Program-made: the position numbers and the translations under genes
The notes under the pieces: model-generated
Seen by the model: only the letters and a program-made list of their open reading frames with translations
Databases searched by the model: none
Told to the model about the DNA's origin: nothing
Part shown: positions 53,791 to 59,652 of the stretch, piece after piece
How the letters are laid out: each line of letters begins with the position of its first letter
Position numbering within the stretch: position 1 is the first letter of the stretch
Assembly (NCBI GenBank): GCA_016201795.1
Contig: JACQCF010000024.1
Span: forward strand, 2,115 to 66,114
Length of the DNA stretch: 64,000 nucleotides
Direction of reading: 5' to 3'
Source: Candidatus Omnitrophota bacterium
GTDB lineage: Bacteria; Omnitrophota; Gorgyraeia; Zapsychrales; Fredricksoniimonadaceae

Positions 53791-53880
53791 GGAGAGGTGG
53801 CAGAGTGGCTGAATGCAACTGCCTGCTAAGCAGTTGGCCGGGCAACTGGCCCCCGGGTTCGAATCCCGGCCTCTCCGCCA
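53791..53880 (+). tRNA. tRNA-Ser (anticodon GCT), CCA encoded
   Basis: ggagaggtggcagagtggctgaatgc..., anticodon loop ctgctaa, long variable arm. Confidence 0.85.
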
Positions 53881-53999: not shown

Positions 54000-55034
54000 A
54001 TGGCAAGTCTAAGATTCAGAAGCGGGCGGTACTACATTGATTATCGGGTCAATGGCCAAAGGTTTCGCAAGGCCACCGGTAAATCGAAACGGATCGCTGA
54101 ACTCGCACTCAAAGACATTGAAGTAAAAATTGAACGCAATGACCTTGGGTTCATAGAAAAAGACGTTGAGTTAAACAAGCTCTTCGAAGAATTCCTCGCC
54201 TACGGCATCACCCACCACGCACCCAAAACACAAAAACGCTACAAAGGCATTCTCGATAATTTTAAAGAATTCCTCAAGAAGTTTCCGTTTATCAAAAAAG
54301 CTTCCCAATTGGATTCAAAATTTTTTGAAGACTATCAAACCTTCCGCAAAGTCAAAGGCGTTAGCAATAAAACAGTCAATATAGAACTCATCTGTTTGAA
54401 GGCCATGTTTAATCTGGCCATCAAATGGAATTACATTTGGGCCAGTCCCACCAAAAATGTCACGCCATTAAAAGAAGAAAACAACAAGAAGCCGCGATTT
54501 TTGAGCAAGGAGGAGTGCAAGATTTTGCTTGAGAATTGTGATGAATGGTTTTATCCAATTCTTTATACTTTTCTGCACACGGGCATGCGTAAAAGTGAAT
54601 TGGAGAATTTGACATGGAGTGATGTTGATTTCGAACGTAAAAAAATCAAAATCCGCTACAAGGATGATTGGAGTCCTAAAACATCCGAGCGCGAAATCCC
54701 CATCAGTAATGGCCTTTTTGAGTTGTTAAAGAAGCGGAAGGAAACCAACCAAATCCGCTCATGCCCGTATGTCTTTCACTTAAAAGGGGACAAGATAGAG
54801 GCCAATTATTTAAGGAAAAAATATCTGCCTTTAACCAAACAGTGCGGCTTCCCGGATGTAACTAAAATCCACAGCCTGCGCCATACTTTTGCCAGCCACC
54901 TGGTCATGAGCGGGGTGGACTTACCAACAGTCAAGAAGCTCATGGGCCATGCGGATATTGAAACAACCATGATCTATTCCCACCTGGCCGATGAGCATGT
55001 GGATAAGGCGGTGGAAAAATTGAGTTTAATTTAA
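54000..55034 (+). CDS. tyrosine recombinase/phage-type integrase
   Basis: C-terminal HSLRHTFASHLVMSGVDLPTVKKLMGHADIETTMIYSHL carries the R-HxxR-Y catalytic residues. Confidence 0.85.
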   Translation: MASLRFRSGRYYIDYRVNGQRFRKATGKSKRIAELALKDIEVKIERNDLGFIEKDVELNKLFEEFLAYGITHHAPKTQKRYKGILDNFKEFLKKFPFIKKASQLDSKFFEDYQTFRKVKGVSNKTVNIELICLKAMFNLAIKWNYIWASPTKNVTPLKEENNKKPRFLSKEECKILLENCDEWFYPILYTFLHTGMRKSELENLTWSDVDFERKKIKIRYKDDWSPKTSEREIPISNGLFELLKKRKETNQIRSCPYVFHLKGDKIEANYLRKKYLPLTKQCGFPDVTKIHSLRHTFASHLVMSGVDLPTVKKLMGHADIETTMIYSHLADEHVDKAVEKLSLI

Positions 55035-55099
55035 TATGAAAAGTTCTCTTGACTATACAAGTTATATGTTGTACACTTTTAGTGTACGGAAAGGCAACA

Positions 55100-55453
55100 A
55101 TGTTAAAGTCTATCTATTATTTTGTTGATATTCGTGGGAATAATCCGGTTAAGGAATTCATTAATAATCTGCCATTGAAAGAGCAAACGAAAATTGATGC
55201 CTATATTGAGGAGCTTAAAAATCAAGGCCATAATTTGCGCAGACCCATGGCTGACTATATAAGGGAAGGAATATATGAATTAAGGCCGGGTCATCATCGA
55301 GTATTTTATTTTTTCTTTTATCGAGAGAGCGCTGTTCTGCTCCATGCGATAAGGAAAAAAACGGACAAAATACCATCGAATGATTTAGATTTATGCCTTA
55401 AAAGAAAAAAAGAATTTGAACATCTTTGGGATATTAATAAACTTGATTCTTAA
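55100..55453 (+). CDS. Gp49/HigB-like RelE/ParE-family toxin
   Basis: MLKSIYYFVDIRGNNPVKEFINNLPLKEQTKIDAYIEEL...GIYELRPGHHRVFYFF...AVLLHAIRKKTDKIP pattern. Confidence 0.7.
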   Translation: MLKSIYYFVDIRGNNPVKEFINNLPLKEQTKIDAYIEELKNQGHNLRRPMADYIREGIYELRPGHHRVFYFFFYRESAVLLHAIRKKTDKIPSNDLDLCLKRKKEFEHLWDINKLDS

Positions 55454-55467
55454 CAGGGAGGTGTAAC

Positions 55468-55794
55468 ATGGCAAACATTCGGTTAGAAAGATTTGAAGAT
55501 CATCTTCAAGAAAAGCTTAAAGATAAAGAATTCCGCCGTCTTTATGAAATTGAGCGGGCCAAGGTGGCTTTAGCTCAAAAGATTGCAGAAATGCGGCAGG
55601 ACAAGCATCTTAACCAAAAGGCCTTGGCCGTTAAGCTTGGGGTATCCCAGCAATTTGTTTCACAAATAGAGACCGGTGAAGGCCGTAATCTGACTTTGGA
55701 TACGCTTATCCGCATAGCCGCATCTTTAGGACATAAAGTACGCCTCTCTTTTCCTAGAAATGTGGGTAACGGCGCGCATCTTGAAGTAGCTTAG
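55468..55794 (+). CDS. XRE-family HTH antitoxin (HigA-like)
   Basis: QKALAVKLGVSQQFVSQIETGEGRNLTLDTLIRIAASLG helix-turn-helix. Confidence 0.7.
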   Translation: MANIRLERFEDHLQEKLKDKEFRRLYEIERAKVALAQKIAEMRQDKHLNQKALAVKLGVSQQFVSQIETGEGRNLTLDTLIRIAASLGHKVRLSFPRNVGNGAHLEVA

Positions 55795-56210: not shown

Positions 56211-56287
56211 AATTATCTTGAGGTTTATTATTTAAAGAGTAAGATGTTAAAAAATGTGGGATCAATTAAAAAGAGGGGTAGTTGTTT

Positions 56288-58093
56288 ATGAGGTTATTTA
56301 AAGGTCTGGTAATTGGGAATATTTGGGGTGGGATTTATGGTTTTGTTGTCGTCAGTTTCTTTTGCAAGATGAGCAACCTCCCCATATTGAAAAATAAAAA
56401 TTTGATCGTATTGTTTTTATTCTTCTTTTGTTTTTGTTCTCGCACCTGGGCTGTGGATCTGCCGGCAGGGCAGGATGCCGCCGCTCAAGCAGAGCGCTAC
56501 AGGTATAATGTTGAGAACCAGAAAAAAATTTTGGAATATAAAAAACCAAAAGGGCTGAAGATAGGGCCCGAGAAAGAAAAAGTCAAACCTGTAAGCAAGG
56601 GGCCGTCTTTTCTACTTAATGGAGTCAATGTGACCGGCTCGAGTGTCTTTAAACCGGAGGATTTCCGGAAAATTTACGGGCTCTACCTCAAAAGACAAGT
56701 CACATTTCAGGATATGCAGGAGGTCGCCGGCAAGATTGAGTCAAAATATAAACAGGAAGGGTACTATACGACGACAGTTTATATCCCTCAACAGAACATC
56801 CAGAATGGGGTCATAGAAATCCGCGTCGCCGAAGGGGAAATGGGGAACTTGAGCATAGAAGGCAACAGATGGTTTTCCGCTGATTTCATAAAAAGATTCA
56901 TTCACGTCAACAGAGGCGAAATACTGAACATTAAAAAGCTGGCGAGGGACATCTTGCGTTTAAACAAGAACCCGGATTTACAAGTCAAGGTGGTGCTTTC
57001 CCAAGGCAGGGTTGCGCAGACCACGGATATTTCATTGAAAGTGGAGGGCCGGCGGCCCTGGCACGTGGGTGTGCAGGTGGATAACAGTGGGACACGCCTG
57101 ACAGGAAAAGTCCGTCCCATGCTTTTTACCCGTTCTTCCAACGTTTCCGGACGGGGGGATATGATTTTTATCAATTCCCTTTACACGGGTGACTCTTTGG
57201 GTGAATCCGTAAGCTATAGCGTACCGGTGGGGACCAATGGCACAAAATTCGGACTTGATGTGACTTATTTCCGGTTGAAAGTGGGCAAGGAATTCAAATC
57301 TTTTAATATTACCGGTGTCTCGCAGATTTATACGCCCCACCTTTCCTGGGAGCTTGCGTTAACGGAAGATTTTGAAGCTTATTATGATCTTGGGATCAAT
57401 ATCAAATCCATAAACAAAAAGCAGGCTGGTACTGTTACGGACAATGGCCAAATGCGCATCCCGTATTTTGCCTTTGATTTTATAAAGACAGACTCCGAGG
57501 GGGTCACGACATTTAGTCCAAAATTTGATTTTGGCACTTCCGGATTTTGGGGCTCTTCCAGACGGAATTATAGCCCTTCCAGCAGGGCGAATACGGGGGG
57601 ATCATTTTTCAAATATCAGCAGTCATTAAACCGGACGCAAAAGATGTTTTTCGACAGCTATGTGACGATACGCACGCAATTACAGCTTGCGTCACATACC
57701 CTCGCGCCATCAGAACAACTTCAGCTTGGCGGGGCGGATTCTATCCGTGGTTATCCCGAAGGAGATTATTCGGCAGATAACGGAGGATATATGAATTTTG
57801 ACTGGTTTTTCCCGTCCTATGTCATTCCTGAAACTTGGAAATTGCCGGGGCAGGAGGCACCCTTACGCCGCCAGATACAACCTGTGTTTTTTGTTGATTT
57901 AGGCGGCGGCAAATTAAAGGAAACTCAGTCAGGGGAAACAAAGGATAAGTTTCTTGCTGGAATTGGAGGTGGCTTAAGTATGAATTTTAAGTCGTTTTCG
58001 CTACGTTTAGATTGGGCCAAATCTATCGGCGATAAACAATCCTCAGGTTCAGGCCCTTCCACATTTTATTTCACTTTCCGGTCGGAAATATAA
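56288..58093 (+). CDS. ShlB/FhaC/HecB-family two-partner-secretion outer-membrane transporter
   Basis: POTRA region LLNGVNVTGSSVF...IEIRVAEGEMGNLSIEGN plus C-terminal beta-barrel ending in aromatic residues. SD agagggg before ATG 56288. Confidence 0.8.
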   Translation: MRLFKGLVIGNIWGGIYGFVVVSFFCKMSNLPILKNKNLIVLFLFFFCFCSRTWAVDLPAGQDAAAQAERYRYNVENQKKILEYKKPKGLKIGPEKEKVKPVSKGPSFLLNGVNVTGSSVFKPEDFRKIYGLYLKRQVTFQDMQEVAGKIESKYKQEGYYTTTVYIPQQNIQNGVIEIRVAEGEMGNLSIEGNRWFSADFIKRFIHVNRGEILNIKKLARDILRLNKNPDLQVKVVLSQGRVAQTTDISLKVEGRRPWHVGVQVDNSGTRLTGKVRPMLFTRSSNVSGRGDMIFINSLYTGDSLGESVSYSVPVGTNGTKFGLDVTYFRLKVGKEFKSFNITGVSQIYTPHLSWELALTEDFEAYYDLGINIKSINKKQAGTVTDNGQMRIPYFAFDFIKTDSEGVTTFSPKFDFGTSGFWGSSRRNYSPSSRANTGGSFFKYQQSLNRTQKMFFDSYVTIRTQLQLASHTLAPSEQLQLGGADSIRGYPEGDYSADNGGYMNFDWFFPSYVIPETWKLPGQEAPLRRQIQPVFFVDLGGGKLKETQSGETKDKFLAGIGGGLSMNFKSFSLRLDWAKSIGDKQSSGSGPSTFYFTFRSEI

Positions 58094-58117
58094 TTATATA
58101 AATATTTTGTTATAGCC

Positions 58118-58145
58118 TTGATTTCTTATCAATATCAGCTATACT
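58118..58145 (+). promoter_or_regulatory. sigma70-like promoter driving the riboswitch leader
   Basis: TTGATT, 16 nt, TATACT. Confidence 0.45.
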
Positions 58146-58171
58146 TTAATTGGTTTTTTGTAAGACAAGAA

Positions 58172-58290
58172 GTTACGATAAAGGTAAACTATTCGAAAGA
58201 ATGGGGCACAAAGCTATGAGGGCCTTCGAACGCTAACACATTGTAGCGGACAAGGTTGCCAGTTGCCGAGCTAATTTAAGCTATGTTTAT
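58172..58290 (+). promoter_or_regulatory. c-di-GMP-I (GEMM) riboswitch aptamer
   Basis: AAAGGUAAACUAUUCGAAAGAAUGGGGCACAAAGCUAUGAGGGCC...UUGUAGCGGACAAGGUUGCC closely parallels V. cholerae Vc2 GGCAAACCAUUCGAAAGAGUGGGACGCAAAGCCUCCGGCC...GUAGCGGGGUUACC. Confidence 0.7.
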
Positions 58291-58342
58291 TAAGCGCAAT
58301 TTAACACTTATTTTGTTGGGCCCAATGCGCGGGTTAAGTTTA

Positions 58343-58376
58343 AACCCCATTTCTGGTTTCAGAAGTGGGGTTTTTT
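58343..58376 (+). terminator. rho-independent terminator (riboswitch expression platform)
   Basis: ccccatttct ggtttc agaagtgggg followed by tttttt, 50 nt before the Cache-protein ATG. Confidence 0.7.
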
Positions 58377-58428
58377 GTTGGAACCAAACTCATTGGATTT
58401 ATAAGAGTTATATTATATAGGACATGGA

Positions 58429-59652
58429 ATGGATTTTCTAAAAAATTTATTACTTGCCAAGCAAGAAATAAACCAGAGAACCCTACGCCTTAAATTAAAG
58501 ATCACGCTATTTGTATCTCTTGCCGCGGTTATATTTTTTTGTATTTTTATAGTTGTTACTTTTTACGTGGGGAAAACGGGACTGCTGGACAAGGCCGTGG
58601 AAAGCCAGAGCGGAATGACCCAGACCCTGGCCTCCGCGGTAAGCGTGGCAATTGAGAAGCAGGTAGAGCTGTTAAAGTTAAACGCGAACTCACAATTTGT
58701 CATCGATGCCGTAAAACAAAATAATTTAAAGTACCGCGTCATGGGCGAGAAGGAGATACGGCGTTACTTGATGGATGAGGACCAAAGGTGGATTGAGGCC
58801 CCTGATGACCATCCCTTGATCAAACAATATTCCGAAAACAAACTTAGCGCGCAATTAAAGGCATTCAAAGTGGAGAATGACGAGGCGGTCAATCTTCTCG
58901 TTACCGATAAATTCGGCGGTTTAGTCGGCTTCACATCAAGGACATCGGGGTTTTATAGTTTTGACAAGGATTGGTGGCTGGGTTCATACGCGGATGGCCG
59001 CGGCAAGCCCTTTATCGGCAACGTGGAATATGATGAACAAAGCAGTTTATGGGCTATGCCCTTTGCCGTTCCCATTGAGGATGAAACAAGGGCCATTATT
59101 GGAATCTATAAAGAACTCATCAGAATCAATACCTTTTTCAAGCCGTTGATGAATTTCAGAATAGGCAGGACCGGAGACGCTGTTGTGGTCGATGATAAAG
59201 CGTATCTGGTGTATCATCCCAAAGCCGCGCCTTTCGCCAATAAATACTGTGAATATGAAGAGCTGCAGAATACCCTGCAGAACGCCAAAAAATGGGGAAT
59301 ACTCAACAGCGCCTATCTTAATCACGGCAAAAAGTTGGCGGCCTACGCGGAGATTAACGTCACTTCTTTGCCGGCATTGGGAGTTAACTGGTTTGTGTTC
59401 GTAGAGCGGGATTTGAGTGAAATATTTATGCCTTTAAATAAGTTGATTTTTATGATGATTCTTATCGGGATCGCGCTGACGATCATATTGGCTTTGTCTG
59501 TATTTATCTTAAGCGCGGTGGAACGTCCCGGTTCCATCCTGCAGGTGATCAAGGACGCGCCGGCACTAAAGACCCATGAAGAAAGCCCTGGCGCTGTTGA
59601 AAAAAGAAGGATGACGCGTTTGCCGAGTGAACAGAAAGAAGAAAATAAATGA
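58429..59652 (+). CDS. Cache-domain-only membrane protein (TM, periplasmic Cache-like sensor domain, TM, short tail; no output domain)
   Basis: TM1 ITLFVSLAAVIFFCIFIVVTFYV. Cache-like motifs FGGLVGFTS...FDKDWWL and PFAVPIEDETRAIIGIYKELI. TM2 LIFMMILIGIALTIILALSVFIL. Confidence 0.6.
   Translation: MDFLKNLLLAKQEINQRTLRLKLKITLFVSLAAVIFFCIFIVVTFYVGKTGLLDKAVESQSGMTQTLASAVSVAIEKQVELLKLNANSQFVIDAVKQNNLKYRVMGEKEIRRYLMDEDQRWIEAPDDHPLIKQYSENKLSAQLKAFKVENDEAVNLLVTDKFGGLVGFTSRTSGFYSFDKDWWLGSYADGRGKPFIGNVEYDEQSSLWAMPFAVPIEDETRAIIGIYKELIRINTFFKPLMNFRIGRTGDAVVVDDKAYLVYHPKAAPFANKYCEYEELQNTLQNAKKWGILNSAYLNHGKKLAAYAEINVTSLPALGVNWFVFVERDLSEIFMPLNKLIFMMILIGIALTIILALSVFILSAVERPGSILQVIKDAPALKTHEESPGAVEKRRMTRLPSEQKEENK

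Follow-up and report, generated by a model that had tools for sequence, protein, structure and literature searches.

Analysis of a 64,000-nucleotide (nt) stretch of DNA from a Candidatus Omnitrophota bacterium (assembly GCA_016201795.1, contig JACQCF010000024.1; the whole stretch is referred to here as the window) revealed a class-I cyclic di-GMP (c-di-GMP-I, GEMM-I) riboswitch aptamer in the leader of two consecutive genes, which encode a predicted dCache membrane protein (cache) and a very large two-partner secretion (TPS) protein (tpsA). We consider it probable, at roughly 0.8, that the element is a functional class-I riboswitch that controls this two-gene unit by transcription attenuation, while the direction of control can be stated with considerably less confidence.

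Identity of the aptamer

Covariance-model analysis of the leader returned a full-length match to the Rfam family RF01051 (model positions 1–87 of 87) with 56.6 bits and an E-value of 2.1e-8 for the whole window on both strands, which lies 21 bits above the curated gathering score of 35 bits. A scan of the entire window with the curated Rfam thresholds yielded seven tRNAs and this one riboswitch, and no open reading frame (ORF) of at least 60 amino acids (aa) overlaps the intergenic region 58094–58428. The original prediction, made by reading the letters of the sequence, had quoted a series of GEMM core blocks and had named RF01051 as the family to be matched; every block is indeed present within 58183–58260 (Table 1), and the covariance model bears out the assignment.

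In the model alignment, the ligand-contact positions G20, A47 and C92 (numbering of the Vibrio cholerae riboswitch Vc2) correspond to G58183, A58210 and C58266, respectively; of these, A47 is presumably a ligand-contact position as in the Vc2 crystal structures. The G20 equivalent is the unpaired G that precedes the junction pairs G58184–C58209 (G21–C46) and U58185–A58208 (22–45), while C58207 and G58258 align with C44 and G83 of the inter-helix pair. According to the alignment to RF03167, proximal P1 consists of G58177–C58267 (G14–C93) and C58176–G58268 (C13–G94), and the distal P1 5' strand pairs with 58272–58277. Reading of the alignments further indicated that the distal part of P1 is maintained in the related leader L005 through two compensatory changes (GUUUA:UAAAC compared with AGUUA:UAACU). 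Seven of the eight P1b and junction pairs showed compensatory changes among 11 Omnitrophota aptamers, and P2 pairs were supported in an alignment of six sequences, as RNAalifold lost P2 on the 11 aptamers, two groups of which had been misaligned by MAFFT. Because of the compensatory changes in P1b and the junction and the support for P2, we concluded that the aptamer has been under structural selection in the Omnitrophota lineage.

Judged by its sequence, the leader carries a canonical G20/A47/C92-type class-I c-di-GMP aptamer and qualifies for RF01051 in all respects that sequence can test, apart from the canonical receptor motif. The predicted alignment of the three contact positions and of the GAAA tetraloop was thus borne out, whereas the tetraloop receptor in P2 differs from the canonical 11-nt motif.

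Leader architecture and proposed mechanism

The sigma-70-type promoter in front of the aptamer agrees with the consensus at only 9 of 12 positions, but its place is conserved: a TTGAC/TTGAT...TATAnT promoter is found at the same site in all related tpsB–cache spacers, with or without a riboswitch. Transcription is predicted to start at about 58152. At the other end of the leader, a hairpin with six G-C pairs in its stem has a folding energy of −21.4 kcal/mol (z = −6.3; none of 200 shuffles was as stable), and its sequence combines the stable, G+C-containing hairpin and the following U run expected of an intrinsic terminator, which is present in all leaders that possess a sensor domain. A stem with U6 had been anticipated 50 nt behind the aptamer; stem and U6 are there, but the stem begins 71 nt past the last aptamer base. 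The ATG of the first regulated gene follows 52 nt past the U run.

Behind the aptamer lies a long expression platform, and the conservation of the leader extends well beyond the aptamer, with a mean column identity of 78% over 277 columns. Its segment GUUUAUU (58285–58291) is complementary to the aptamer core GGUAAAC, as read from the sequence, and may serve as an alternative partner of that core. Hairpin H was recovered by RNAalifold as the consensus in 6 and in 11 leaders, and all sequences are compatible with it; its changes are one-sided and free of compensatory pairs, and this agreement amounts to compatibility rather than proof. RNAalifold likewise recovered the terminator in the 11 leaders, again with changes almost exclusively on one side. 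Rfam families matched the platform only at chance level (PyrR, rli38, SprD, mir-451), far under their gathering scores. An invariant GUUGG lies directly past the U run, and a conserved GAGUUAGAUUAnAUAGRGGA follows the post-terminator hairpin. The notion that the terminated leader acts as a small RNA was discarded, as sites complementary to the conserved motif are in no excess in the window (4 observed, 6.3 expected).

In the mechanism that we infer from this arrangement, RNA polymerase would start at the promoter and transcribe the aptamer first. Binding of c-di-GMP would then lock the two P1 strands (58170–58177 with 58267–58277) and the core GGUAAAC in the aptamer fold; otherwise, the same strands and core would pair with alternative partners in the platform (58275–58334) and in the terminator 5' arm. 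Depending on the outcome, the polymerase would either stop at the terminator, releasing a leader transcript of roughly 225 nt, or read into cache and tpsA. The sequence bears out the architecture that had been proposed, that of a transcription-terminating c-di-GMP riboswitch: promoter, aptamer, separate intrinsic terminator, ribosome-binding site and operon are all present, and relatives have retained this arrangement.

Related loci

Approximately 50 loci were gathered from genome and metagenome collections; many of them are redundant, and the leader counts in Table 1 therefore refer to unique leaders. The dCache protein is identical to one annotated in a Candidatus Omnitrophica metagenome-assembled genome and has about 45 orthologue-like relatives (50–72% identity). 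Practically all loci have tpsB, cache and tpsA in this order, and synteny was found in about 30. Rfam detected an aptamer directly 5' of cache in L005/L020, L007, L010/L046, L013, L015/L016, L017, L035 and L041. In a more distant group (L028, L029, L031), a Cache protein of about 655 aa adjoins tpsB, and the aptamer stands directly 5' of tpsA.

The leaders that have lost the aptamer and kept platform and terminator differ in their deletion end points from locus to locus, and Rfam gave either no match or only 25 bits for them. L003, L054 and L055 carry different internal deletions, each of which leaves GGUAAAC/GUUUACC as a perfect 7-bp hairpin; L014 lacks the region from G21 through mid-P2; and L049, whose locus encodes the closest relative of the dCache protein of the window, lacks only 9 nt, ACAAAGCUA, including C46 and A47, with a remodelled P2. 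We also considered the deletion variants as locked states of the switch and rejected this idea: the fold of L055 consists of a 5' hairpin, a lengthened hairpin H and the terminator, and no constitutive read-through was shown. Three further leaders, termed class B, begin like the window leader (CAAGACAAGAGGTTRCGA) and share its promoter, terminator and post-terminator hairpin, while a segment of the form ACYAGRTGAATTSATTRAGAAA...CCAGAAGGTTTG...AAAGCATTTCTTTT...AAATACGGGTTAAG replaces the aptamer and hairpin H. Class B leaders had no Rfam match at E <=1, and the segment could be a different sensor domain. The promoter-only spacers measure 75–214 nt in six loci, the contig of L053 being too short to measure.

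Several side observations were made on these leaders. A U stands at the C92 position (UGUCGA), with G20 kept, in L010 (4519–4616), L035 (2245–2342) and L041 (2246–2343), and L031 (10176–10257) has an A at position 20 (AAGAGCAAAC), which we take to be the signature of cGAMP-selective (cyclic GMP-AMP) GEMM-Ib aptamers. Ligand specificity may, on such contact-position variants, differ among the TPS-linked riboswitches. In the distant group, three to four direct repeats of about 20 nt (e.g. AAAGTTGTAGTTAGGA) precede the riboswitch; L030 has the repeats and the downstream leader, with aptamer and terminator precisely missing. L002/L009, from a metagenome-assembled genome labelled Syntrophales, contain group II intron domains at the leader position (1–256; RF02001 with 90.7 bits, RF01998 with 68.7 bits), directly 5' of cache.

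Direction of regulation and alternative readings

Provided that the switch works, we consider an OFF switch, in which c-di-GMP promotes termination, to have slightly better than even chances, and an ON switch to be a serious candidate of clearly lower probability. We lean towards OFF because the terminator can form alongside the folded aptamer and because every plausible candidate anti-terminator is built from aptamer strands that the ligand would sequester; c-di-GMP would thus lock the aptamer, free the terminator arm and lead to termination. With the aptamer enforced, the minimum free energy (MFE) structure still held the terminator in six of six leaders folded, so that the ligand-bound fold is compatible with termination. 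Whole-leader MFE folding gave no clean two-state switch; the terminator forms in both full-length states, with the aptamer enforced or free. Among the alternative pairings, AGUUAC of the P1 5' strand has two possible partners, GUAAAC in the aptamer core and UAACU in the P1 3' strand, and the P1b 3' strand GAAUGGGG (58199–58206) is complementary to the terminator 5' arm CCCCAUUU (58345–58352), with −12.5 kcal/mol and z = −1.55 against dinucleotide shuffles in the window. Aptamer–terminator complementarity exceeded that of shuffles in L007, L015 and L035 (z = −2.1 to −2.7). In these three leaders, the accessibility of the terminator 5' arm, computed on truncated transcripts that end just before the terminator 3' arm is made, was higher with the aptamer enforced than with the aptamer free (0.66 vs 0.26, 0.64 vs 0.11 and 0.46 vs 0.15, respectively), an OFF-type shift that is limited to some lineages and to equilibrium folding. 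L005 and L017 instead allow the P1 3' strand CCGAAAU to pair with AUUUCGG of the terminator arm.

As general anti-terminators, four pairings were examined and dismissed: that of the P1b 3' strand with the terminator 5' arm occurs in only half of the leaders, CCGAAAU:AUUUCGG only in L005 and L017, GGGUU:AACCC comprises only 3–5 bp, and GGUAAAC:GUUUAYY is conserved without covariation. Since no candidate is both universal and strong, the assignment of a direction is tentative. As an account of the locus as a whole, we regard it as rather unlikely that c-di-GMP blocks termination and so switches on cache and the giant tpsA. Such an ON switch has a precedent in Bc2, a class-I ON switch with a terminator in front of the collagen adhesin gene cap (PMC4933901). 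It would also fit the general rule by which attachment to surfaces goes with high c-di-GMP, surface proteins being more often induced. A relay of pairings can also be drawn for it: the distal P1 3' sequence (CUUAAC in L007, L015, L023 and L035, UUUAA in the window) has its complement in the conserved GUUAAG (58333–58338), and once P1 has formed, GGGUU might be released for pairing with AACCC at the terminator base. In the window itself, the terminator arm is about equally accessible in the two states, if anything slightly less with the aptamer enforced (0.34 vs 0.44). Against this stand the 3–5 bp of GGGUU:AACCC compared with a 14-bp terminator of −21 kcal/mol, the near-complete deletion of the anti-terminator loop in L005 and L017, and the position of the terminator, which lies 71 nt downstream and, unlike that of Bc2, coexists with the folded aptamer in every enforced fold; moreover, none of the leaders folded showed a strong accessibility shift in the ON direction.

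The points in favour of an ON switch and the balanced accessibility in the window tell against the reading that we prefer, and so do several further results. In the P2 receptor region, CCUUCG...ACAAGG stands where CCUAAG...UAUGG is canonical, with pairs that the model classes as non-standard; two-sided covariation is almost absent from the platform helices among 11 leaders; aptamer–terminator complementarity is not beyond chance in four of eight leaders (L005, L010, L017, L041); and a simple motif scan of ORFs of at least 120 aa in the 64-kb window, a weak negative, found no GGDEF, EAL, HD-GYP or PilZ signature, so that the enzymes of c-di-GMP metabolism must be encoded elsewhere in the genome. 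Finally, five aptamer-less relatives retain platform and terminator, and the platform may have an additional input. This last result also bears on whether the aptamer is a relic and the conserved platform answers to a protein or a different RNA, so that c-di-GMP would matter little or not at all, a reading that is encouraged by the loss of the aptamer through different deletions with platform and terminator nearly unchanged and by the different conserved segment that class B leaders carry on the same platform. We judge it very improbable: the window aptamer is intact at all conserved core positions and scores like the best relatives, compensatory evolution across the nine intact copies indicates selection on structure, and the platform has neither an Rfam match nor a complementary target of its conserved motif in the window beyond the count given above. 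The persistence of the platform after at least three independent aptamer losses led us to a related, rather doubtful suggestion, namely that the AACUAUGUUUAYY motif, hairpin H, terminator and post-terminator hairpin act as a self-contained regulatory cassette of Omnitrophota TPS operons that can be exchanged; if so, class B would represent natural aptamer swapping on a fixed expression platform that controls giant secreted proteins. That the aptamer is a specificity variant, either for 3'3'-cGAMP (GEMM-Ib) or for the ligand of the c-di-GMP-I-GGC variant, appears to us a far-fetched alternative. In a narrow E-value scan of 451 nt, clan competition did assign RF03167 (c-di-GMP-I-GGC) to the same site with 55.3 bits, and relatives vary at the contacts, as described above for L031 (position 20) and for L010, L035 and L041 (position 92). 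The 55.3 bits lie below the RF03167 gathering score of 59, however, and its consensus G (GCGAAG) is met in the window by an A (ACAAAG), which is A47. Position 20 is G58183 and not the A that we assume to be typical of cGAMP-selective GEMM-Ib, C92 is a C, and the RF01051 threshold is passed by 21 bits. Taken together, we retain a functional c-di-GMP-I riboswitch as the preferred reading.

Gene context

The first regulated gene encodes a 407-aa protein without an output domain. Its match to Pfam dCache_1 (PF02743) amounted to 33.7 bits, under the cut-off of 45, and a sequence search of the PDB with the Cache family profile gave no match. The AlphaFold model has a predicted local distance difference test (pLDDT) score of 67.8, with a poorly modelled membrane-distal module; Foldseek related this moderate-quality model to the dCache ligand-binding domains of the chemoreceptors Tlp3, PctA and McpH (probability 1.0, E ~1e-8, TM-score to target ~0.6). 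As a conserved third component, the Omnitrophota TPS operons studied here encode a dCache protein that has two transmembrane (TM) helices but lacks an output domain; its gene is tandemly duplicated in L010/L046. The equivalent gene of the distant group L028–L031 encodes about 655 aa, and homologues of similar length (P0046, P0048) have HAMP and HATPase_c domains, which suggests that this equivalent is a sensor kinase.

The ATG of tpsA overlaps the stop codon of cache (ATGA), so that the two genes are translationally coupled, and its frame remains open for at least 1450 codons up to the end of the window. We refer to TpsA as giant because its orthologues comprise 8097, 10006 and 8257 aa. A TpsB with POTRA domain and a TpsA with TPS domain are encoded together, as is characteristic of two-partner secretion (type Vb). 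The original prediction had described a Cache protein / giant adhesin operon under second-messenger control. A Cache-type protein, as judged from its predicted fold, and a very large TPS-domain protein are indeed encoded, and by its domains the latter is a TpsA-type two-partner secretion exoprotein; an adhesin function is only presumed, since haemolysins and contact-dependent toxins are members of the TpsA family, too. Control by c-di-GMP would likewise cover cache and tpsA, which lie under the leader, but not the partner gene tpsB, which is outside riboswitch control because it is located upstream of the riboswitch promoter.

Upstream, tpsB is adjoined by a toxin-antitoxin-like pair (Gp49 and helix-turn-helix (HTH) genes) together with an integrase and tRNA-Ser(GCU), an arrangement that suggests that the TPS module resides on an integrated island, whose far end would lie outside the window. 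tRNA genes flank tpsB in L018, L029 and L030 too.

Table 1. Positions of the leader elements and genes in the window, and inventory of the related leaders (positions in related loci refer to the respective locus; RBS, ribosome-binding site).
Feature	Position or number	Strand	Details
c-di-GMP-I (GEMM-I) aptamer	58173-58270	+	RF01051 match, helix covariation
Core blocks, part 1	58183-58189; 58190-58194; 58195-58199; 58200-58209		GGTAAAC; TATTC; GAAAG; AATGGGGCAC
Core blocks, part 2	58210-58214; 58243-58249; 58254-58260		AAAGC; GTAGCGG; GGTTGCC
P1 5' strand	58170-58177	+	AAGUUACG; pairs with 58267-58277
P1b	58189-58194 with 58199-58204	+	6-bp stem, GAAA tetraloop 58195-58198
P2	58212-58264	+	pairs supported in 6-sequence alignment
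P1 3' strand and motif	58267-58291	+	UUAA(G)CUAUGUUUAYY, near-invariant across leaders
Sigma-70-type promoter	58118-58145	+	-35 TTGATT 58118-58123, 16-nt spacer, -10 TATACT 58140-58145
Platform hairpin H	58289-58334	+	AYY..GCGC (AUU in the window; GCGC 58294-58297) with GCGC 58327-58330 ..GGU
Intrinsic terminator	58342-58376	+	14-bp stem 58342-58355/58360-58373, loop GUUU, T6 58371-58376
Post-terminator hairpin	58387-58409	+	AACUC...GAGUU; in class A, aptamer-deleted and class B leaders; upper stem variable
RBS; start codon	58419-58422; 58429-58431	+	AGGA; ATG of first regulated gene
cache (first regulated gene)	58429-59652	+	dCache membrane protein, 407 aa, TM-dCache-TM, short disordered tail
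tpsA (second regulated gene)	59649 to beyond 64000	+	N-terminal TPS domain, 91.2 bits (Pfam)
tpsB	56282-58093	+	ShlB/FhaC-type transporter with POTRA; Pfam ShlB 83 bits, POTRA_2 62 bits
tRNA-Ser(GCU)	53791-53880		upstream of tpsB
Tyrosine integrase gene	54000-55034		upstream of tpsB
Gp49/HigB-like gene	55049-55453		upstream of tpsB
HTH gene	55468-55794		upstream of tpsB
Leaders with intact aptamer	n = 9		window, L005, L007, L010, L013, L015, L017, L035, L041
Leaders with aptamer deleted or decayed	n = 5		platform and terminator kept; L003 5735-6000; L014 5718-6000; L049 644-976; L054 1-391; L055 1238-1503
Class B leaders	n = 3		unrelated conserved segment of ~120 nt; L012 2180-2398; L033 2285-2503; L042 2283-2503
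Promoter-only spacers	n = 7		L004, L006, L018, L019, L022, L038, L053
Direct repeats, distant group			L028 2640-2720; L029 8060-8150; L030 8060-8150; L031 10080-10160

Comparison with known systems

Comparison with Vc2, the structural reference, for which roles of G20, C92, G14, the C44–G83 pair and the GAAA tetraloop with its receptor have been described (PMC11705072), revealed the same core: G20 and C92 contact the two guanines of the ligand in Vc2 and have their equivalents here, G14–C93 closes P1, P1b ends in a GAAA tetraloop, and the inter-helix pair C44–G83 is possible in the Omnitrophota aptamer as well. In contrast, C22–G45 of Vc2 is U22–A45 in the window, position 19 is an A, and, as noted, the P2 receptor is not the canonical 11-nt motif. 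Bc2 of Bacillus thuringiensis is likewise a class-I aptamer in the 5' untranslated region of a gene for a large surface protein (cap, collagen adhesion protein) and followed by an intrinsic terminator. Bc2 is experimentally an ON switch whose terminator abuts the aptamer and whose terminated RNA measures about 121 nt (PMC4933901), whereas the terminator of the Omnitrophota leader is set off by 71 nt behind a long conserved platform and the cargo consists of dCache protein and TpsA in another phylum. Class-I riboswitches of Clostridioides difficile, among them Cdi-1-3 (flgB) and Cdi-1-2 (the calcium-binding putative adhesin CD630_27970), are OFF switches (PMC6200980); they also act on the transcription of genes for surface structures, in the direction favoured here. 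They differ in that they belong to Firmicutes, none precedes a two-partner secretion system, their platforms are unrelated in sequence, and their function has been shown in vivo, whereas that of the Omnitrophota switch is predicted from sequence.

Biological significance

c-di-GMP-I riboswitches are well understood as a class, and the element described here is a new example of this well-known kind of RNA switch rather than a new kind, although the phylum has received little study and the cargo is unusual. Among the papers that we searched, none links c-di-GMP riboswitches with two-partner secretion, and the literature on giant genes of Omnitrophota that we examined mentions neither TPS, Cache nor c-di-GMP. 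The related loci offer a natural series of intact, decayed, deleted, replaced and absent sensor domains around one conserved platform, in which the gain and loss of riboswitches can be studied. Members of the Omnitrophota are thought to attach to other cells or to prey on them. In this setting, the leader suggests that c-di-GMP is coupled, in an uncultivated Omnitrophota bacterium, to the synthesis of a giant TPS protein and a dCache membrane protein, and the link to this second messenger points to when such costly giant proteins would be made.

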